A DNA stretch of 44,086 nucleotides, taken from assembly GCA_021132495.1 (NCBI GenBank), contig GCA_021132495.1_4335.1. One strand, given 5' to 3'. Under the pieces are notes generated by a model that saw only the letters and a list, made by a program, of their open reading frames with translations, did no database searches and had not been told where the DNA came from. Below, piece by piece: positions 1,565-11,516 of this stretch (positions within the stretch are counted from its first letter, which is position 1; each line of letters begins with the position of its first letter). This stretch comes from a phage. Position numbers and translations under genes: made by a program.

Positions 1565-1693
1565 ATGACAAAGTTAATAGTTCCACAGCTACGCCGCCAG
1601 AAACACGGCGCTGACTTCTTCGCACCGGTAAAGATGAACCGCGCAATGCGCCGTATGCAGGAAGCCTTAGAACGTGCGGAGAAAAAGAAATGA
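1565..1693 (+). CDS. small basic hypothetical protein (42 aa)
   Basis: Manual ORF with RBS aagga; stop overlaps the ATG of the next gene (ATGA). Confidence 0.3.
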   Translation: MTKLIVPQLRRQKHGADFFAPVKMNRAMRRMQEALERAEKKK

Positions 1694-3942
1694 ATATTGT
1701 TTTTGCAACGCTGCGCAACACATTCGATAAAAACCCTGTAGCGCGTGAGATGCCTCTCGAGCAGTTTGTGGAGTATGTCTGCGATACATCGAAGCGTTTA
1801 TCCGTGGATCCGTCGTGGTCTAAGGAAGAGTACGACGCTGCCAAGATTAAGCAGAAAGCTATTGCGCCTGTTGGGGGTCGCCGTAAAAGCGCTATCCTGG
1901 AAGACAGTGTGGTTAAGTTCGATTTTGACCATCTCAACCGTACTCAGTACCGCGACCTTACCCGCAAATTCAAGAACGCACCGTTCTTCAATATTCTGCA
2001 TACAACGGCATCGCATCAGCATGTGTGTAAAAACGGTGATTACGCCTTCCGCGTTCTGGTTCCGGCTCGCACGCCGTTTAACTCTAACGACGCGTGGATG
2101 GTCCAACGGGCTATTTGTGCAGAGTTAGAAATAGATGAAGCCTTGCGTGACCACTGCACGGAAGACGGCAACCGCCTTATCTATCTACCACATAGAGAGT
2201 CAAAGATAACGGTTACAGAAGGGCGTGTTATCCGTGCCGAGCGGTACATCAAGAAAGCCGAAGAGATGGGGTTGAGTAAACGTGAAGTTAAGACACTTGC
2301 CGCCGATGAGTATGGGCTTAACGCTGATATAGCGCATTTCTGCGAAGCCGAGCTTGGCCTTGACGCTTTATCTTCCGGGCGCGGGTACGAAGTCCCATGC
2401 CCTAACGAACATCTGCATACAGGCAAAGGCTCCACAAGCATCATGCTTGATGGTAAAGAAGTGCGCTTTGTGTGCCAGCATACAAACAACGGCGCTTGCA
2501 CCGAGCTTAACCGCCGACAGCATTTGGCCCTGCGTATGTGCGGCCTGCCAGACGAGCTTAACGTAGACAAGCAACCTATCAGTATTAACAGCATTCGTGC
2601 GGCTCTGCCTGATTTACCGGATGAAGAGATTGAAGAACTGCACCGCACAGAGAACGAGGAGCCTGTAACTTGCACGCTGGAAGACCTTGAAGAAGAGGAC
2701 GAGTTACCAGAACCGGTAAAGGCTGATTTCGTCGTTGAGGGGTACATGCCGTCGGATTGTATCTGGGATATTGTCGGGGAATCCGGCACGTACAAATCAT
2801 TCTATACGCTGGGGATGATGTACCTGAGCGCCGCCGGGTACCGGTTTGCGGGGGCTGACACCCAACGTTGCCACCATTTCTATATTGACGGCGAGGGTGG
2901 TGCAGCTACACGAACACGTATTGATGCACTCGCGGCTAAATATGGCGAGGAAGGTAAAGATTATGTACATGTCATCGATATGGGCGAAATACTCGCTACG
3001 CATGGTGATAAAAAAATTCCAGCTCTAATCCGCAGGATGCGCGAAACCGCAGGGGATGAACCTATTGGCATGGTTGCCTTCGACACCCTTAACCAGACGC
3101 TGGCCCTGACGATTGATAAGTTCGACGAGAACAGTTCATCAACGGCAATCGGTATGGGTAAAGTTATCGCCATCCTGAAAGAAGTGCGCGATGCAACTAA
3201 AGCCGCTGTCGGTGTCGTTCACCATACTCCGAAGGGCGGAAAGAAAGCCCGCGGCAGTGGAGCATTGTATGCGGGTGTCGACGTGGAACTGACAATCGAA
3301 CGCGCTACCGACCGTCAGATAAACGTATACCACTCTAAATTTAAGCACGGTCCTCAACAGAAGACGGTTGGCATGGTACTGGAGTCTGTACAGTTCCGTG
3401 AAGCACCGCCGCCGAAAGAGTACCGCGCGGTTGAGTTCCTCGGTAGCACAGAGGAATACGGCACAATAGTAAACCTCGACCTGCCTGAGCCGCACAAGGC
3501 GCTTGTATTGATGCCGTGGGGCTTCGAGCCATTCAAGACCGACGAGGAGAAAGAGAGGGGAGAAGGGTTAACTAACGAAGGTAAACAAAATGTACGTAAA
3601 ACCATAGAGAACGCCGTCAACAGTTCCGAGGCCACGATACTCGCGGCGTTTGAACTGGCGGAGGGGACCTACAACGGCAACGAGGGCATCACGGTATCCG
3701 CAGCGAATAAGCTCGCGCAGTCTGACCCCAACGCAAAGGCGTTTAACTCCAAAGAAGCCATAGAACGCGGGAAGATTAAGAAAATGGTTGAGGCTGGGTA
3801 TCTTGTTCCGGGTACTGACGAAAACAATCAGATAATCCCAGGCCGTTACAGACTGAACACCATGATAACAGATAACAAGATTCCGAAGACAATATACGAA
3901 CCGAATGAAATGCTGACAGTGACCGAGGAGGATTTGGAATGA
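1690..3942 (+). CDS. replicative primase-helicase-like protein (RecA/DnaB-type P-loop ATPase, Zn-binding region)
   Basis: 750 aa; Walker A GESGTYKS; Cys/His cluster CPNEHLH...CQHTNNGAC; acidic C-terminus TEEDLE. Confidence 0.6.
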   Translation: MNIVFATLRNTFDKNPVAREMPLEQFVEYVCDTSKRLSVDPSWSKEEYDAAKIKQKAIAPVGGRRKSAILEDSVVKFDFDHLNRTQYRDLTRKFKNAPFFNILHTTASHQHVCKNGDYAFRVLVPARTPFNSNDAWMVQRAICAELEIDEALRDHCTEDGNRLIYLPHRESKITVTEGRVIRAERYIKKAEEMGLSKREVKTLAADEYGLNADIAHFCEAELGLDALSSGRGYEVPCPNEHLHTGKGSTSIMLDGKEVRFVCQHTNNGACTELNRRQHLALRMCGLPDELNVDKQPISINSIRAALPDLPDEEIEELHRTENEEPVTCTLEDLEEEDELPEPVKADFVVEGYMPSDCIWDIVGESGTYKSFYTLGMMYLSAAGYRFAGADTQRCHHFYIDGEGGAATRTRIDALAAKYGEEGKDYVHVIDMGEILATHGDKKIPALIRRMRETAGDEPIGMVAFDTLNQTLALTIDKFDENSSSTAIGMGKVIAILKEVRDATKAAVGVVHHTPKGGKKARGSGALYAGVDVELTIERATDRQINVYHSKFKHGPQQKTVGMVLESVQFREAPPPKEYRAVEFLGSTEEYGTIVNLDLPEPHKALVLMPWGFEPFKTDEEKERGEGLTNEGKQNVRKTIENAVNSSEATILAAFELAEGTYNGNEGITVSAANKLAQSDPNAKAFNSKEAIERGKIKKMVEAGYLVPGTDENNQIIPGRYRLNTMITDNKIPKTIYEPNEMLTVTEEDLE

Positions 3943-4253
3943 ATATTTACGATTTTATAGATAACCCGTTTAAAGCAGTGAAGGCAGGATACCGCCCGTC
4001 ATACCTGACATGTGTTTCCGCTGTAAGCAACAACTGGTGGACTTTTTGTGTGTATGCAGCGGGGATTTTTGCGGAGTTTAAAGACATTTTAGACATGACG
4101 CTGGCAGAGATTATAAAGTGCCTTTTCAAATTAATTATATCGATAACTATTGTTATAAGTTTTCCTGTAAGTGCGTGGTTTCTCGCCTGGATTCAGTACC
4201 TGAACGTGCAACACACTATTAAGAATTTGGAAGAACTCGATAAGTTGCTATAA
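3939..4253 (+). CDS. membrane protein (C-terminal hydrophobic segment)
   Basis: ORF track; ATGA overlap with the upstream gene. Confidence 0.5.
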   Translation: MNIYDFIDNPFKAVKAGYRPSYLTCVSAVSNNWWTFCVYAAGIFAEFKDILDMTLAEIIKCLFKLIISITIVISFPVSAWFLAWIQYLNVQHTIKNLEELDKLL

Positions 4254-5399: not shown

Positions 5400-5672
5400 A
5401 TGATTTACCAACTCTACCGCGCCGTAGACAGGCGGGATAACACAGAGGCGTTGTGGCTGTTGCGTGCGCCGTCCGGTGCGCACCAGATGGAAGAGATGGC
5501 GTACTTAGGCAAAGTACCGCGTCCTAAAGATATAGGTCGTCACGTGTCGCGGATTAAACGCACGACATTCGCCAAGCCCGACTTTTATGTCTTCGAGTCG
5601 ATGTATGGATGGGCCTTACATTGCGACCACAAGACACGGCATTTAATTGACCAGTGGGAGAACAGAGCATGA
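5400..5672 (+). CDS. hypothetical protein (90 aa)
   Basis: ORF track; stop overlaps the next ATG. Confidence 0.45.
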   Translation: MIYQLYRAVDRRDNTEALWLLRAPSGAHQMEEMAYLGKVPRPKDIGRHVSRIKRTTFAKPDFYVFESMYGWALHCDHKTRHLIDQWENRA

Positions 5673-6910
5673 AACTAAAAGAACGAGGCGGCAATAATGA
5701 TGTACACGCCTTACTGTCACCGTCAGGCGCTAAAAAGTGGCTGTCATGCGCTGCGTCGCTGGCGTGTGAAAAAGATATCCCTAACACGTCGGGTAAAGCC
5801 GCTGTACTAGGAACCGCCATGCACACCATAGCTGAGGTCCATCTCAACGCCTATATACGCGGCACTGCGTTGCCGTTAGAGCGTGAAGTCGGCGCTTACG
5901 TACTGGATGAAGGCAAAGGTCAGATTAAGGCGCTAATCAGCCTGATGAAAGGCGCGGTACTGATTACGGCGGACATGATTGAGCAGGTGCGCAAGTACAC
6001 CGACTACTGCAAAGCGATTATAGACGTAGCGACTTACGCCAAGCTGGAAATGCGTGTCAATCTTACTGAGGTATTGCATCCGGGGTATGAAGGCGTTGAG
6101 ACGTTCGGAACCGCTGACCTCGTTGCTGTCCAGGAACTGGCAAACACCGACGAGCACATGCTCATTATCGGCGACCTGAAAACCGGGCGGCATCGCGTCG
6201 AAGCGAAAGAAAACAAGCAGCTTATGCTTTACGCTCTCGGTGTTTATCGTCGACTCAAGAGACGTTATAACATAACAACCGTTCGTCTGGTCATCTTCCA
6301 GCCTTACGCTGGGGGTGCGACAGAGTGGGACATCTCGGTTGAAGGACTGGAACTGTTCGCTAAGTTCGCACAGAAACGCGCGCTGTTAGCGCTTGATGCG
6401 TATTTCCGTGGCAAGAAGAACCTGAAAGCGTCGGACTTCAAGCCATCGGTAGATGGTTGTCAGTGGTGCCGGTTCTCTGAACAATGCGCTGCGCGTACAA
6501 AGACGGTTAATTCTGTACTGGCGGAAGAACTGGAAGACGACTTTGTGCTGGAACTGACGCCGGAGCAACTCGTAGCTGAGTATGAGAAGTTGCCGCTGTT
6601 GCGCCAGCACATCGACAAGGTTGAGAAAGCTATGGCGGCCGCGTTGCATTCAGGTAAGAAAGTTCCTGGTTACAAGTTGGTTGAAGGCCGCCCGGGCAAT
6701 CGTGCATGGAAAGACGCGGAGAAAGTAACAGAACTCTACGGCGACAAGCTGACTAAAGAAGTGCTCATGTCACCTACCGAAGCTGTTAAAGTCATACCGG
6801 AAGAAGAACTGAAAGACTTCATTACCCGTAAGCCAGGCGCACCATGTGTCGCAACGGCAGACGACAAACGTCCTGAGTGGAATCAGGTAACAGAGGAGGA
6901 TTTGGAATGA
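5669..6910 (+). CDS. PD-(D/E)XK exonuclease, Cas4/RecB-like, with C-terminal Cys cluster
   Basis: Motif GDLKTGRHRVEAKENKQLMLYAL (D..K..Q..Y); CQWCRFSEQC; start moved to ATG 5669 after RBS gggag; acidic C-terminus TEEDLE. Confidence 0.7.
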   Translation: MKLKERGGNNDVHALLSPSGAKKWLSCAASLACEKDIPNTSGKAAVLGTAMHTIAEVHLNAYIRGTALPLEREVGAYVLDEGKGQIKALISLMKGAVLITADMIEQVRKYTDYCKAIIDVATYAKLEMRVNLTEVLHPGYEGVETFGTADLVAVQELANTDEHMLIIGDLKTGRHRVEAKENKQLMLYALGVYRRLKRRYNITTVRLVIFQPYAGGATEWDISVEGLELFAKFAQKRALLALDAYFRGKKNLKASDFKPSVDGCQWCRFSEQCAARTKTVNSVLAEELEDDFVLELTPEQLVAEYEKLPLLRQHIDKVEKAMAAALHSGKKVPGYKLVEGRPGNRAWKDAEKVTELYGDKLTKEVLMSPTEAVKVIPEEELKDFITRKPGAPCVATADDKRPEWNQVTEEDLE

Positions 6911-7110
6911 TTCAAGTAAATGAAATGCCCACAGATAAAGATTTTGTGATGATATGGCGCTGGGGCGGTTATATCCATTCGGAATCGTTTACGTTCCTGA
7001 ACGGCACGATGGTGCGATACAACCATGTGGAGGATGAATTCGAACCCGTTGATATGAATGATTTCGAGAACATAGTCCGTATTGCGAAATTTTATTTGAC
7101 ACCTGAATAG
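6907..7110 (+). CDS. hypothetical protein (67 aa)
   Basis: ATG at 6907 after RBS gaggagga, overlapping the upstream stop. Confidence 0.45.
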   Translation: MIQVNEMPTDKDFVMIWRWGGYIHSESFTFLNGTMVRYNHVEDEFEPVDMNDFENIVRIAKFYLTPE

Positions 7111-7183: not shown

Positions 7184-7810
7184 ATGGGTATTAAACTGAA
7201 TCTGCGTAAAGTAAACACTGCTTGGGTTAACGTATTTGAACGTGAAAAAGACCGTGAAAACGATGATGGCTCAATCACTAAAGGCCAGTACAGCGCGACT
7301 ATCATCCTGCCGTCTGACCATGCTCAAATCGATGCGCTCTACGACACCGTTTACGCTGTAGTTGAAGAAGCGTTAGGCGCAGCCGCTGCCGAGAAATGGA
7401 TGAAGTCCAACTACGGTGAAGGTAAGCACATGGATAAATGCGCGATTAAAGACATTGCCGAGCGCGACAATCCGTTTGAAGACTTCCCGGAAGGCTTCTA
7501 CTTCAAAGCGAAGGCACAGAAACAGCCGCTGATTGTAACCTCTAAAAAAGGTGAGACTCAGGTAGAGCAGGACTTCAACGTAGACGGCGAACAGATTGAA
7601 GGTGAACAGGTTTACAGCGGATGCTTAGCTAACGTAAGCGTTGAAATCTGGTTCAGCCAGAAATACAAAGTCCTCGGCGTTAACCTGCTGGCGATTAAAT
7701 ACGTTGGCGAAGGCAAAGCGTTCGGCGGTTCTAAAGTCGCTGCGAGCGTCAATGACCTGGAAGACGACGAAGAAGATGAAGCACCGCGCCGCGAACGTCG
7801 CCGCCGCTAA
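7184..7810 (+). CDS. putative ssDNA-binding protein with acidic C-terminal tail
   Basis: 208 aa, directly upstream of the DNA polymerase; C-terminal DLEDDEEDE; assignment by position and composition only. Confidence 0.4.
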   Translation: MGIKLNLRKVNTAWVNVFEREKDRENDDGSITKGQYSATIILPSDHAQIDALYDTVYAVVEEALGAAAAEKWMKSNYGEGKHMDKCAIKDIAERDNPFEDFPEGFYFKAKAQKQPLIVTSKKGETQVEQDFNVDGEQIEGEQVYSGCLANVSVEIWFSQKYKVLGVNLLAIKYVGEGKAFGGSKVAASVNDLEDDEEDEAPRRERRRR

Positions 7811-7869: not shown

Positions 7870-10041
7870 ATGAGTTACCTGTTCTTAGACTTTGAAACAT
7901 TCTCAGAAGCCGATTTGAAGAAAGTCGGTTCTTACGCTTACGCCGAACACCCGTCAACCGAAGTGCTTATCTGTACATATGCTTTTGACGACGAACCTGT
8001 GCGGGTATGGGATTGCACCGACGGCAGCGACATGCCGGGGGATTTACACCGCGCACTGCGCCGCCTTGTTAAGCCCAACAGCCGCATCAAGATGGTGTGG
8101 CACAACGGTGGACTTTTCGATCGCCTAATCATGAAACACTGCTGGGACTTTGATATTCCGGTAAGTAACACCATTGATACTATGATTTGGGCGTTCCGTC
8201 ACGCGCTGCCGGGTTCTCTTGATGCGCTGTGCGAAGTGCTGGGCGTGTCTGCAGACAACGCGAAAGATAAACGCGGCAAGGCTCTGATTAAGCGTTTCTC
8301 TAAACCGACGCCGAAGAACTACAAAATCCGCCGCTACACCGCAGAAACTCACCCTGACGAGTGGGCGATGTTCATCAGGTACGCCGTGAGCGACATCACT
8401 GCGATGCGTGAAGTCTTCCATAAGCTGCCGCGTTGGGGTAACTCCGAGTTCGAAGACCGTGTACTGGAACTTGACCAGTTAATCAACGACCGCGGATTTA
8501 AGGTTGACGTCGCACTGGCGGAAGCCGCGATTGAAGCCGTAGAGAAGCACAAGGCACAGTTACAGGAAGAAGCTCAACGTAAATACGGCGGCTCGCTTAC
8601 CGGTAAAGACTTCCTTCCGATTCTGCGTGAACTTGCGCCCGCGCACCGCATACACAATGCACAGAAGTCGACGCTTAACGACCTGTTGGCAGATTATGAT
8701 TTACCGGACGACGCCCGGATGATTATCGAAATGCGCCTCGGGGCCGCGTCAACAGCGTCCACGAAATATAACCCGCTGCTGTTAGGCCGCTCGTCGGACG
8801 ACCGACGCCGCGGTTGTATCCAGTACGGTGGGGCAAAGCGTACGTTACGGTTCGCGGGTAAAGGCTTCCAGCCACAGAACCTGGCGCGTGGGTACTATCA
8901 CGATGATGAACTGGATAAAGGCATTTCAGCGTTACTTAAGGGCCGGGCGCACCGCCGATTTGACGTAGCCAAGCTAACGGCATCGACCGTTCGTAGCTGC
9001 ATCATACCGGAAGCAGGGCATAAGTTTGTCGTTGCCGATTACTCTAACGTCGAAGGCCGCGGTCTTGCGTGGCTGGCGGGTGAAGACGATTTAATCGAAG
9101 TATTTGTAAACGGGGTTGATGTGTATAAGAAACTCGCATCAACGGTGTTCAATGTTGCATATGAAGCCGTAACAAAGGACCAAAGACAAATAGCCAAAGC
9201 AATGGTTCTGGGACTCGGCTACGCGGGGGGCGTCGGTGCTTTCGTCACGTTTGCTAAAAACTTAGGTCTTGATTTGAATGACATGACTAACACTTTAGAC
9301 GGTACATTCCCGGACCATATTTGGGCCGCTACCGCACGCGGATACGAATGGGCGCGTATTCAGGAAGCCAAGCGACCACCACGTCCTGGTGAAAAAGATG
9401 ACCGACCCTCATATATCCTTGATAAGAAAGTTTGGCGCACCTGTGACGCTTTAAAGCGCATGTACCGGGAAGCTAATCCTGCAATAGTCCAATTCTGGCG
9501 CGATATTGAAGACGCAGCTATGGCAGCAATCCGTAATCCGGGGAAAGAGTTCACCGCTGGCCCTCGCGGGGTTAAGTTTTCTCGCAACGTAGAAACAGAC
9601 AACAACGGCAACAAAGTCGCGGGTTGGTGGTTGCGCATGACGTTGCCGTCAGGTCGCGTTATGTCATACCCGGGCGTCGGGTTGAGCGTGTCAAAAGAGA
9701 CAGACGAAGACGGAAAAGTTTCTACTAACGTGCGCATCAAGTATCAGGGCGAAAATCAGTTAACCAGGCAGTGGGGCTTCCAGTACACCTACTCCGGTAA
9801 ACTGGTGGAAAACTGCACTCAGGCACTGTGCCGTGATTTGCTGGCTAACGCCCTGCTGAACGTAGAGGCAAACGGCTACCCTATTGTGCTTCATGTACAC
9901 GATGAGATTATCTGCGAGACACCTGATTTACCGGAATACAATGTTGCAGAGCTTGAGCGGTTGATGTGTGAATTACCGGAATGGGCGGAGGGGTTCCCTC
10001 TTGTAGCAGAAGGTAGCGAAATGTACAGATACGCCAAGTAG
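7870..10041 (+). CDS. family A DNA polymerase with 3'-5' exonuclease domain
   Basis: 723 aa; exo motif FLDFETFS; polymerase motifs DYSNVEGR (A), KAMVLGLGYAGG (B), HVHDEI (C). Confidence 0.9.
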   Translation: MSYLFLDFETFSEADLKKVGSYAYAEHPSTEVLICTYAFDDEPVRVWDCTDGSDMPGDLHRALRRLVKPNSRIKMVWHNGGLFDRLIMKHCWDFDIPVSNTIDTMIWAFRHALPGSLDALCEVLGVSADNAKDKRGKALIKRFSKPTPKNYKIRRYTAETHPDEWAMFIRYAVSDITAMREVFHKLPRWGNSEFEDRVLELDQLINDRGFKVDVALAEAAIEAVEKHKAQLQEEAQRKYGGSLTGKDFLPILRELAPAHRIHNAQKSTLNDLLADYDLPDDARMIIEMRLGAASTASTKYNPLLLGRSSDDRRRGCIQYGGAKRTLRFAGKGFQPQNLARGYYHDDELDKGISALLKGRAHRRFDVAKLTASTVRSCIIPEAGHKFVVADYSNVEGRGLAWLAGEDDLIEVFVNGVDVYKKLASTVFNVAYEAVTKDQRQIAKAMVLGLGYAGGVGAFVTFAKNLGLDLNDMTNTLDGTFPDHIWAATARGYEWARIQEAKRPPRPGEKDDRPSYILDKKVWRTCDALKRMYREANPAIVQFWRDIEDAAMAAIRNPGKEFTAGPRGVKFSRNVETDNNGNKVAGWWLRMTLPSGRVMSYPGVGLSVSKETDEDGKVSTNVRIKYQGENQLTRQWGFQYTYSGKLVENCTQALCRDLLANALLNVEANGYPIVLHVHDEIICETPDLPEYNVAELERLMCELPEWAEGFPLVAEGSEMYRYAK

Positions 10042-10073: not shown

Positions 10074-10109
10074 ATACCGATATAATGGCTATGTCGGTAT
10101 TTTTTTTTT
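10074..10109 (+). terminator. intrinsic terminator (ataccga ... tcggtat + T9)
   Basis: 7-bp stem, 13-nt loop, nine consecutive T after the polymerase gene. Confidence 0.65.
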
Positions 10110-10119
10110 GGAGTTATTA

Positions 10120-10815
10120 ATGAAAAAGTGTTCAAGATGCGGCGAAGATAAACCGGCGACTACAGAGTATTTTTCAAAGTCAACGCGCCTCGGGCTGCAA
10201 CGCTGGTGTAAAGAGTGTGTAAATGCTAACAGGAAGGAAAAGTATGACGAAAAACTTAAATTACAAGGTAAATCCAGACGAGAAAGCCCTTGGTATGTTT
10301 TCACTGGGAAGCCTGTTAAATGCAGAAAGTGTGGGGAGGTAAAACCTTTAACAGAGGAAAACTTCAGGAAAGGAAATAAAAGTAATGGCTCTCATATCAG
10401 GAAAGATTGCCGGGAGTGTCTCAACAAGCAACGCAGGGAACTGGTGAATAAGGACCAAAGGATGCGGGCGTACGCGCTTTTGTTAGGATACAAAAGAGCA
10501 GATTCAGGAAAAGGGCTTATCTGCGATTTAACACTGGAAAGCGTTATTAAACTAATATCACAGCCATGCCATTATTGCGGAAGCACTACAAAAGTCGGGG
10601 TAGACCGCATAGATAATACAAGCGGGCACATAGTATCTAACTGCGTTTCTTGTTGTCAGACATGTAATCTTACCAGAGGACACCGGTTTACATTCATTGA
10701 AATGGTTACGGAGATAGGTCCCGCCATTAAAAGAATAAAAGCGGCGAGAGAAGTTTCACATATACCGTCTTTTCCTAATAGGTGGCCTGAAGGAGAATGT
10801 AGAGATGCCAAGTAA
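10120..10815 (+). CDS. HNH endonuclease with N-terminal Zn-ribbon repeats
   Basis: Motif CHYCGSTTKVGVDRIDNTSGHIVSNCVSCCQTCN; four CxxC pairs; start moved to ATG 10120 after RBS ggag. Confidence 0.75.
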   Translation: MKKCSRCGEDKPATTEYFSKSTRLGLQRWCKECVNANRKEKYDEKLKLQGKSRRESPWYVFTGKPVKCRKCGEVKPLTEENFRKGNKSNGSHIRKDCRECLNKQRRELVNKDQRMRAYALLLGYKRADSGKGLICDLTLESVIKLISQPCHYCGSTTKVGVDRIDNTSGHIVSNCVSCCQTCNLTRGHRFTFIEMVTEIGPAIKRIKAAREVSHIPSFPNRWPEGECRDAK

Positions 10816-10936: not shown

Positions 10937-11022
10937 AAATCTACTGGTTTTATGAAGAAGACTGTCGAATCTGTCCGCGCTGCGGTACTGAACATACGAA
11001 ACGTGAGGGGTGTGTATTATGA
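10933..11022 (+). CDS. small CxxC peptide (29 aa)
   Basis: Manual ORF MKIYWFYEEDCRICPRCG...; ATGA overlaps on both sides. Confidence 0.25.
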   Translation: MKIYWFYEEDCRICPRCGTEHTKREGCVL

Positions 11023-11516
11023 AAGCACCAAGTGACGATATAAAAGATTTTCTGTCATACGACCCGGATACCGGGATATTTAAATGGGTCAAGCACAGAT
11101 GCCAGACCGCGAAACCCGGAGATGTTGTTACATACAAGGACCGTAAAGGGTACATATTGTTAGGATGGAGTAGGGTGTATTACCGCGCACACAGGCTGGC
11201 GTGGTGGTGGGTGTACGGAGAGATGCCAACTAAGCAAATAGACCATATTAACGGCATACGGGACGATAACCGGATTTGTAACCTACGGCTTGCGGATGAA
11301 TTTCAACAGAACCATAACCGCAAGACCCCAGTTACGAACACCAGCGGCGTGAAAGGGGTTAACTGGAGTAAGCCTCATAATGCTTGGTGTGCTCGAGTTG
11401 CTTTTAAAGGTACACGCTATCAGATTGGGTATTTCCAGAACCTAAATGAAGCAGAGGAATCCCTGAGAGAATTTAGGGCAAAACTGCACGGAGAGTTTTG
11501 CAACCATGGCGACTAA
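11019..11516 (+). CDS. HNH endonuclease with AP2 DNA-binding domain
   Basis: HNH motif IDHINGIRDDNRICNLRLADEFQQNHNRK; AP2-like GVKGVNWSKPHNAWCARVAFKGTRYQIGYF; ATG at 11019 after RBS gagggg. Confidence 0.8.
   Translation: MKAPSDDIKDFLSYDPDTGIFKWVKHRCQTAKPGDVVTYKDRKGYILLGWSRVYYRAHRLAWWWVYGEMPTKQIDHINGIRDDNRICNLRLADEFQQNHNRKTPVTNTSGVKGVNWSKPHNAWCARVAFKGTRYQIGYFQNLNEAEESLREFRAKLHGEFCNHGD

Follow-up and report, generated by a model that had tools for sequence, protein, structure and literature searches.

An acidic D-L peptide conserved on the helicase-primase, DUF2800 exonuclease and gp2.5-type single-stranded DNA-binding protein of a Kagunavirus-like phage is probably a docking peptide

Known replication tails and the phage module

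The acidic tails of phage T7 replication proteins need a C-terminal aromatic residue (Phe). The tails of the T7 gp4 helicase-primase and of gp2.5 bind both the front basic patch and the thioredoxin-binding domain patch of gp5, and they compete with one another (PMC12339929; bioRxiv 10.64898/2026.05.20.726333). Here, we describe a peptide motif in a 44,086-nucleotide stretch of DNA (NCBI GenBank assembly GCA_021132495.1, contig GCA_021132495.1_4335.1), hereafter the window, which is the complete genome of a Kagunavirus-like (Guernseyvirinae) siphophage of Escherichia coli. The helicase-primase and the DUF2800/PD-(D/E)XK exonuclease encoded in the window end in the same seven residues, VTEEDLE, and the same type of motif is found in the T7 gp2.5-type protein that binds single-stranded DNA (SSB). 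Judged by the sequence comparisons described below, the peptide on these three proteins is a real, conserved, and specific motif; by analogy to T7, the VTEEDLE tail is probably a docking peptide.

The window resembles the T7 replisome in encoding an SSB with the gp2.5-type fold, a family A DNA polymerase, and a helicase-primase. Furthermore, the acidic tails of the helicase-primase (VTEEDLE$, with $ for the C-terminus) and of the SSB are similar, and each has a key hydrophobic residue. There are also differences. The window tails end in D-L-E, with Leu at position -2 and no terminal Phe, and the motif also occurs internally, in the linker of the helicase and in the SSB, where a basic RRERRRR end follows it. 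By Pfam, the helicase is a RepA-like AAA_25 protein without a match to DnaB_C. The motif is also carried by the PD-(D/E)XK exonuclease, by small proteins and, elsewhere, by a methyltransferase, and neither a thioredoxin-binding domain nor a basic patch was recognized on the window polymerase. The original prediction had proposed the analogy to T7 on the basis of acidic C-termini; the analogy is strengthened by the finding that the SSB is a gp2.5 homologue that carries the same D-L motif, and is not merely acidic. We regard it as the best available explanation.

The triad of exonuclease, SSB, and polymerase has been named the 'duf2800-gp2.5-polA module' of phages and prophages (PMC8093625). The window contains the same triad in the same order as this module, and its SSB, like Enc34 ORF6, has an acidic flexible tail. 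The three genes are adjacent and on the plus strand in the window, and the same triad is present in the 74 and 80 related loci analyzed below. In neither PMC8093625 nor PMC5686142 did we find it stated that a lineage-specific tail is common to exonuclease and SSB, or that it can occur on a helicase-primase; in the literature searched, coverage of which is incomplete, we found no description of a tail that a gp2.5-type SSB has in common with a PD-(D/E)XK exonuclease.

In general, the partners of an exonuclease-annealase pair bind each other physically, for example λ Exo and Redβ (PMC6393309, PMC11611040). As in λ Exo-Redβ and RecE-RecT, the exonuclease and the single-stranded DNA (ssDNA)-annealing protein of the phage module are encoded side by side, and a physical interaction is expected. 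However, in λ a folded C-terminal domain of the annealase binds the exonuclease, whereas in the phage module both partners carry the same peptide. The presence of the same peptide on both the exonuclease and the SSB therefore points to a third-party receptor or to binding within the groove of the SSB.

The shared peptide and its carriers

Both gene ends were read in each of 74 related loci, whose exonucleases are 44-97% identical to that of the window. The diversity of the exonucleases in the analysis comes from a search of representative sequences and from locus scans, as the search for homologous proteins returned only exonucleases that were at least 95% identical. The exonuclease tail reads ..RPEW..[VA][TS][ED][ED]DL[ES] in 68 of 73 homologues from these loci, down to 44% identity. 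The tail lies outside the conserved domain, because the DUF2800 model ends at residue 407 of 418. The helicase-primase tail, ..YEPN[ED]xxx[VT]TE[EG]DLE, is kept in homologues of 44-100% identity. In Dhillonvirus (e.g., phage Gluttony) and in Guernseyvirinae similar to Klebsiella phage VLCpiS11a, the helicase-primase is encoded divergently, on the other strand, and it still ends in [AV][ST]D[ED]DL[NKA][SD]. The original prediction, that the primase-helicase and the exonuclease have an acidic tail in common, thus holds, and the alignment of homologues that it had proposed reveals conservation of the tail on both proteins to 44% identity and beyond. The overall consensus of the motif is [VAC]-[ST]-x-[DE]-D-L-[EDSNK], and the motif peptides of the window proteins are DDKRPEWNQVTEEDLE, EPNEMLTVTEEDLE, and AASVNDLEDDEEDE.

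The helicase-primase contains two copies of the motif, one at the C-terminus and one in the linker (Table 1). The linker copy, C[TSD]x[DE]DL[EDA][DEN], was found in all Guernseyvirinae and Dhillonvirus helicase-primases, even in those with unrelated N-terminal halves, and is duplicated in one genome (L038). The Gluttony exonuclease also has an internal copy.

In the SSB, the motif copy reads ..AASVNDLEDDEEDE, with the acidic stretch at residues 191-199. It is conserved as SVNDLEDDEEDE across Guernseyvirinae and Dhillonvirus. In the SSB alignment, the D-L motif of the window aligns with 'CSDEDLGDDDEDE' of Dhillonvirus and with 'SEDEFDDI' (motif A) of distant SSBs; the Dhillonvirus counterpart of the window motif is SSCSDEDLGDDDEDE. 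The claim that the SSB itself ends in an acidic stretch had to be abandoned, because the motif is followed by the basic end APRRERRRR. By sequence and predicted structure, the window SSB is a homologue of T7 gp2.5. It has sequence matches to 4jg2 and 5odj in the PDB, and its AlphaFold2 (AF2) model (predicted local distance difference test score, pLDDT, of 84) was matched by Foldseek to the DUF2815 structures 4klk, 5odj, and 4jg2 (E<=5e-8) and to T7 gp2.5 (1je5, E=6e-5). The motif itself was modeled with pLDDT 63-68 and a one-turn helix at residues 189-191.

The motif is specific to a small set of proteins. Of the 511 open reading frames (ORFs) of at least 40 aa in the window, only two, those of the helicase-primase and the exonuclease, end with it. 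Across the 74 loci, 142 of 6,807 ORFs end with the motif; 135 of these are exonucleases or helicase-primases, and the other seven are proteins of 63-68 aa. These small proteins are encoded between the SSB and the polymerase in VLCpiS11a-like phages (L076:12263-12454, Klebsiella phage VLCpiS11a; L050-L057) and end in TATDEDLE; the one in L057 has an unrelated body and the same end. None of them matched a family in Pfam or PHROG; they may act at the receptor of the tail, as adaptors or as competitors. The polymerase, which ends in ..EGFPL.AEG.E..RY.K, did not carry the motif in any of 69 + 72 homologues.

A search for DUF2800 proteins among 1.84 billion representatives gave 11,643 homologues at E<=1e-3. 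Tails were read in the best 150 of these, of which 146 are full-length, and 122 of the 146 have at least five acidic residues in the last 25. In distant exonucleases, the usual form is D[DE]F[ED][DN][LVI], and these tails often end in [DE]L[VIA]. In a set of 80 distant loci, the exonuclease and the gp2.5-like SSB both end in the bipartite tail [DE][DE]F[DE][DN][VIL]...[DE][LFM][VIA]$ in all 80; in L111, for example, the tail reads ..NDFENVDETESAESLI. The same tail was found in 120 further SSBs, with motif A in 92. The bipartite tail was never found on the adjacent polymerase, which was present in 72 of the 80 loci (most of the other contigs are incomplete). Compared to these distant modules, the motif of Guernseyvirinae and Dhillonvirus is a single D-L core instead of a bipartite F...L[VIA]$, and the SSB has gained a basic extension.

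An acidic and hydrophobic end was present in 117 of the 10,975 ORFs of the distant loci, and 112 of the 117 are exonucleases or SSBs. One of the remaining five is a DNA methyltransferase (DPPY motif, phrog_67; L089:6192-7310 on the minus strand, and L090). It ends in AAEDEFDGAADLV, which is the type of bipartite tail found on the exonuclease and SSB of its own genome. The terminal residues of exonuclease and SSB match within genomes (DLV/DLV, SLI/SLI, DMI/DMI, EFI/EFV, DLA/DLA, and DLS/DFS, respectively). This within-genome match was better than in all 10,000 permuted pairings, a test that is inflated by the relatedness of the genomes (phylogenetic non-independence). The set comprises about 58 distinct lineages, and phylogeny would confound a column-wise co-variation of tail type with residues of the polymerase or SSB.

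The lineage represented by L103 and L107 was considered as one that has the tails and no polymerase. This was rejected: the 600-aa ORF beside the SSB (12314-14113 in L107) encodes a DNA polymerase from a different family (phrog_1252, without a Pfam match). In this lineage the exonuclease keeps the first half of the bipartite tail (..EDDFADIAG), and the SSB has both halves.

Two further observations concern the architecture of the carriers. The helicase-primases are mosaic, with two unrelated N-terminal halves (ISINSIRAALPDLPDEE.. and MSPKEVWKYACDATGLPF..) on the same helicase domain. The internal linker motif C[TS]L[ED]DLED marks the exact junction of the mosaic (window 1690-2700 compared with L003, L015, and others), and the segment 3' of the linker motif likewise exists in two forms. 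The SSB tails of Dhillonvirus and VLCpiS11a-like phages (L050, L058, and L072) consist of two to three tandem modules of an acidic run followed by PR(K/R)RRR, which is unusual for an SSB tail.

The repeat at the gene junctions and the neighboring genes

The last five codons of the helicase-primase and exonuclease genes lie in an 18-bp repeat, GAGGAGGATTTGGAATGA. The original prediction located this repeat at two gene junctions and read each copy as a C-terminal EEDLE, a ribosome-binding site (RBS), and the overlapping ATG of a small downstream gene. Both statements are correct: the exact string occurs exactly twice in the window, both times on the plus strand (Table 1), and the ORFs place copy 1 at the 3' end of the helicase-primase gene and copy 2 at the 3' end of the exonuclease gene. 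A third copy was not found in the window, even with two mismatches allowed, and none of 100 dinucleotide shuffles contained two matches. Both junctions read GAGGAGG-ATTTGGA-ATGA, with 7 nt between GAGGAGG and the ATG, and the ATG overlaps the TGA stop. Defining a translationally coupled junction as a Shine-Dalgarno (SD) sequence 5-9 nt before a start codon that overlaps the upstream stop, both sites are of this type; by sequence, the 104-aa and 67-aa genes are translationally coupled to the upstream replication genes via the SD and ATGA. In this they share one design, ATGA stop/start coupling with the SD inside the preceding gene, in which there is nothing unusual. Such coupling accounts for the nucleotide identity of the two copies, but not for the conservation of the peptide. 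The identity at the DNA level ends exactly at the two borders of the 18-mer: the codons for V and T immediately 5' of it, which complete the seven-residue peptide common to both gene ends, are GTG ACC in one gene and GTA ACA in the other, and differ only by synonymous changes at the third position.

The repeat could be an element that acts at the level of DNA or RNA, i.e., a recombination substrate, as had been suggested, a boundary for the exchange of modules, or a convergent SD/ATGA cassette without meaning for the proteins. The two copies are exact and are located at boundaries with downstream genes that vary among relatives, and GAGGAGG followed by 7 nt and ATG is a textbook RBS. Nevertheless, among the 45 genomes that contain both genes (44 loci and the window), the two 18-mers are identical in three, one base apart (TTG/TTA) in six, and 2-13 bases apart in the rest; they thus differ in 42 of 45. 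The tail persists through synonymous changes (GAA/GAG, TTA/TTG, GTN, and ACN), with or without a gene overlapping the stop, and in many genomes no gene overlaps the end of the tail, whose stop codon (TAA or TAG) is followed by non-coding sequence. Because the peptide is kept despite synonymous changes and despite the absence of an overlapping gene, selection acts on the protein and not on the DNA. The codons used reflect the junction: exonuclease genes with EEDLE and the ATGA overlap use GAG GAG, which is the SD sequence, in 20 of 20 cases, and those with EEDLE and TAA without overlap use GAA GAA in 17 of 17, an association that coincides with two haplotypes (VT.. and VS..) and may partly reflect descent. 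The peptide is conserved even where there is neither a downstream gene nor an SD (GAA GAA ... TAA).

Recombination between the copies found no support either. A synthetic query for the junction of the predicted 2,968-bp deletion had no match in 50,697 phage records, BLAST gave 0 matches between the genes 3' of the two sites, which would have indicated their exchange, and only one other viral contig contains two exact copies of the 18-mer. We consider an element at the DNA or RNA level to be extremely improbable and already largely refuted. The same peptide together with the SD and ATGA leaves only the Asp and Leu codons free, and the exact identity of 18 bases is therefore unremarkable. As judged from these alignments, it is an incidental by-product of a shared peptide and a shared coupling design, and the nucleotide repeat has no importance of its own.

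Table 1. Coordinates of the motif copies, the 18-bp repeat, and the genes discussed in the text (positions in the window).
Feature	Position	Strand	Description
C-terminal tail VTEEDLE of helicase-primase	3919..3939	+	residues 744-750
C-terminal tail VTEEDLE of exonuclease	6887..6907	+	codons
Internal motif copy CTLEDLEEEDE in helicase-primase	2671..2703	+	residues 328-338; linker just before helicase domain
SSB motif copy ASVNDLEDDEEDE	7742..7780	+	residues 187-199; directly after OB fold
Basic SSB end APRRERRRR	7781..7807	+	outside shared motif
18-mer copy 1	3925..3942	+	EEDLE + TGA; SD GAGGAGG 3925-3931; downstream-gene ATG 3939-3941; ATGA overlap
18-mer copy 2	6893..6910	+	EEDLE + TGA; SD GAGGAGG 6893-6899; downstream-gene ATG 6907-6909
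Helicase-primase	1690..3942	+	750 aa; Pfam AAA_25 2e-20, RepA-like ATPase, residues 328-517; phrog_3228 full length
Downstream 104-aa gene	3939..4253	+	hydrophobic; phrog_2638 7e-33; predicted to be coupled to helicase-primase
DUF2800/PD-(D/E)XK exonuclease	5669..6910	+	413 aa from ATG 5669; GTG 5654 gives 418 aa; DUF2800 5e-68; phrog_69
Downstream 67-aa gene	6907..7110	+	phrog_6314 2e-23; predicted to be coupled to exonuclease; annotated in relatives, e.g., Bas70_0044
T7 gp2.5-type SSB/annealing protein	7184..7810	+	DUF2815, Enc34 type; Pfam PF10991 4e-16; phrog_112
Family A DNA polymerase	7870..10041	+	Pfam DNA_pol_A 7e-22; 3'-5' exonuclease domain; phrog_17; PDB matches to Pol I family

The closest phage record is Escherichia phage vB_EcoM_SHAK7858, with 96% identity over the replication region, and 475 phage records match. 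This phage is filed under Autographiviridae/Kayfunavirus, which does not agree with its gene content; similarly, the NCBI record of the window is labeled an E. coli 'plasmid', although the window is a complete Kagunavirus-like phage genome. The only Pfam match of the helicase-primase is AAA_25; its N-terminal half has no Pfam match, and the PHROG label is 'replicative helicase-primase'. The 413-aa form of the exonuclease is on record (P0001). The 104-aa gene is annotated as a coding sequence with a 4-nt overlap in OR594183; among relatives, the site 3' of the helicase-primase contains another gene or none.

Directly 3' of the polymerase gene, the window contains two ORFs for Cys-rich, HNH-like proteins (10108-10815 and 11010-11516), which are possible homing endonucleases. 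In L012 (9037-12147), L038, L039, L043, L047, L061, and L062, the polymerase ORF has about 1,030-1,070 aa compared to about 725. These long polymerases have an in-frame insertion of about 310 aa, with Cys as its first residue (..RQIGKA|CLHRHTQ..) and ..LVAHN|CELGLGY at its end, which is the signature of an intein. The window polymerase is without the intein-like insertion; the corresponding site is at residue ~446, at about position 9205.

Candidate receptors for the peptide

A specific peptide on the flexible ends of unrelated enzymes, which co-varies within genomes and which one constant module member does not carry, has the signature of a docking motif. This member is the polymerase, the neighbor of the SSB in all modules. 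We consider it reasonably likely that the motif is a docking peptide for a common replisome receptor, and that this receptor is most likely the adjacent family A DNA polymerase. The polymerase is favored because the SSB is a gp2.5 homologue and the polymerase belongs to family A. The helicase-primase, the exonuclease, and the SSB would take turns on this one receptor through the motif on their flexible ends and linkers. Unwinding, the removal of SSB, and end resection and annealing would be coupled to DNA synthesis through the shared docking.

Several points weigh against docking to the polymerase. The tail ends in DLE and some copies are internal, in contrast to the C-terminal aromatic residue of the T7 tails. 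The primase-helicase of the distant loci is usually without the tail; coupling of the helicase via the motif would therefore be lineage-specific. T7 gp5 is absent from the sequence matches of the window polymerase, whose alignment to Pol I structures is confined to the motif-A region; we infer the docking to the polymerase from T7. The inflated permutation test and the coincidence of codon use with haplotype, both described above, also count here. Finally, the SSB is an equally concrete candidate for the receptor, because in crystals of DUF2815 SSBs and gp2.5 a neighboring molecule holds the acidic tail in its DNA-binding groove (PMC5686142).

The same docking motif could thus be read by the ssDNA-binding groove of the gp2.5-type SSB and not by the polymerase. 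Free SSB would then travel with the helicase-primase and the exonuclease and be passed on to the ssDNA that these two produce, and the SSB's own copy would be an auto-inhibitory or cooperativity element. Crystals of Enc34 ORF6, other DUF2815 proteins, and T7 gp2.5 have the acidic C-terminus in the groove of the neighbor, with 842 A2 buried (PMC5686142), and in an AF2 model of gp2.5 the groove is occupied by the protein's own tail (PMC12339929). The SSB tails are not modeled as fully disordered (pLDDT 63-68 in the window, ~71 for motif A in P0276, with short helices); overall, their pLDDT values of 56-71 are compatible with docking or with none. The physical interaction typical of exonuclease-annealase pairs such as λ Exo and Redβ also fits. 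However, the gp4 and gp2.5 tails of T7 are documented to bind the polymerase, and a receptor that itself bears the motif would be permanently self-competed. We think of the groove as a possible but unlikely sole receptor; the groove and the polymerase are not mutually exclusive. A rather improbable alternative dispenses with a common receptor: each tail would act in cis as a DNA mimic or electrostatic shield, and the likeness would reflect a shared need for acidic and hydrophobic residues. All carriers are DNA-binding enzymes, removal of the Enc34 ORF6 tail alters the discrimination between single- and double-stranded DNA (PMC5686142), and the tail of gp2.5 and ssDNA compete for the cleft of this protein, according to a statement cited in the same paper. 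Generic acidity, however, would not yield a specific motif with an invariant D-L and a preceding S/T that is identical over seven residues between unrelated folds, nor the co-variation of exonuclease and SSB tails within genomes, nor the presence of the motif on the 63-68-aa proteins and the methyltransferase.

Still less probable is docking to a host protein, e.g., through mimicry of the acidic-hydrophobic tip of bacterial SSB, which would recruit host replication or repair factors. The E. coli SSB ends in MDFDDDIPF, and motif A (D-[DE]-F-D-D-[IL]), as found in the distant modules, resembles this end. Phage annealases do read host SSB tails (PMC6393309). The Kagunavirus motif TEEDLE, however, is without the Pro-Phe end, and the tails co-vary with the phage module. 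A receptor internal to the phage is simpler, because polymerase, helicase-primase, and SSB are all encoded by the phage itself.

More broadly, the module may be compared to cellular hub-client docking on the E. coli SSB tip, the beta-clamp, or PCNA. As in those systems, a short peptide is located on the disordered ends of diverse DNA enzymes, and a methyltransferase is among the clients. The sequences are unrelated, however (no QL[SD]LF and no DDDIPF), and these phages encode no recognizable clamp. In the SSB-tip system one tail has many receptors, whereas in the phages many tails have apparently one receptor. We tentatively propose, as a possible though doubtful extension of the docking reading, a clamp-less 'hub and client' system, in which one pocket on the polymerase or the SSB reads a lineage-specific acidic-hydrophobic peptide as a private address code. 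The clients would be the exonuclease and the SSB and, depending on the lineage, the helicase-primase (with two copies per subunit), small adaptor or competitor proteins, and a DNA methyltransferase. Co-evolution of the tails with the receptor would insulate the replisome of each phage from co-infecting relatives and from the host.

Three assignments of the peptide to known classes were rejected. No tail has a Pro-Phe end, i.e., (I/L)-P-F-COOH, as a mimic of the SSB tip would. The consensus of beta-clamp-binding motifs is a QL[SD]LF-like pentapeptide, and [ST]x[DE]DL[EDS] contains no Gln and no terminal aromatic residue. A degron was considered as well, and the sequence does not fit.

If the peptide does serve in docking, components of the replisome could be found by their tails, as exemplified by the 63-68-aa proteins and the methyltransferase, and phage replication could be blocked or rewired with peptides or tail swaps. 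The principle of tail competition known from T7 would extend to a PD-(D/E)XK exonuclease and other clients. The docking would also provide a simple, testable wiring diagram for a very common and biochemically unstudied phage replication and recombination module, which is found in Guernseyvirinae, in Dhillonvirus, and in thousands of prophage-like elements.

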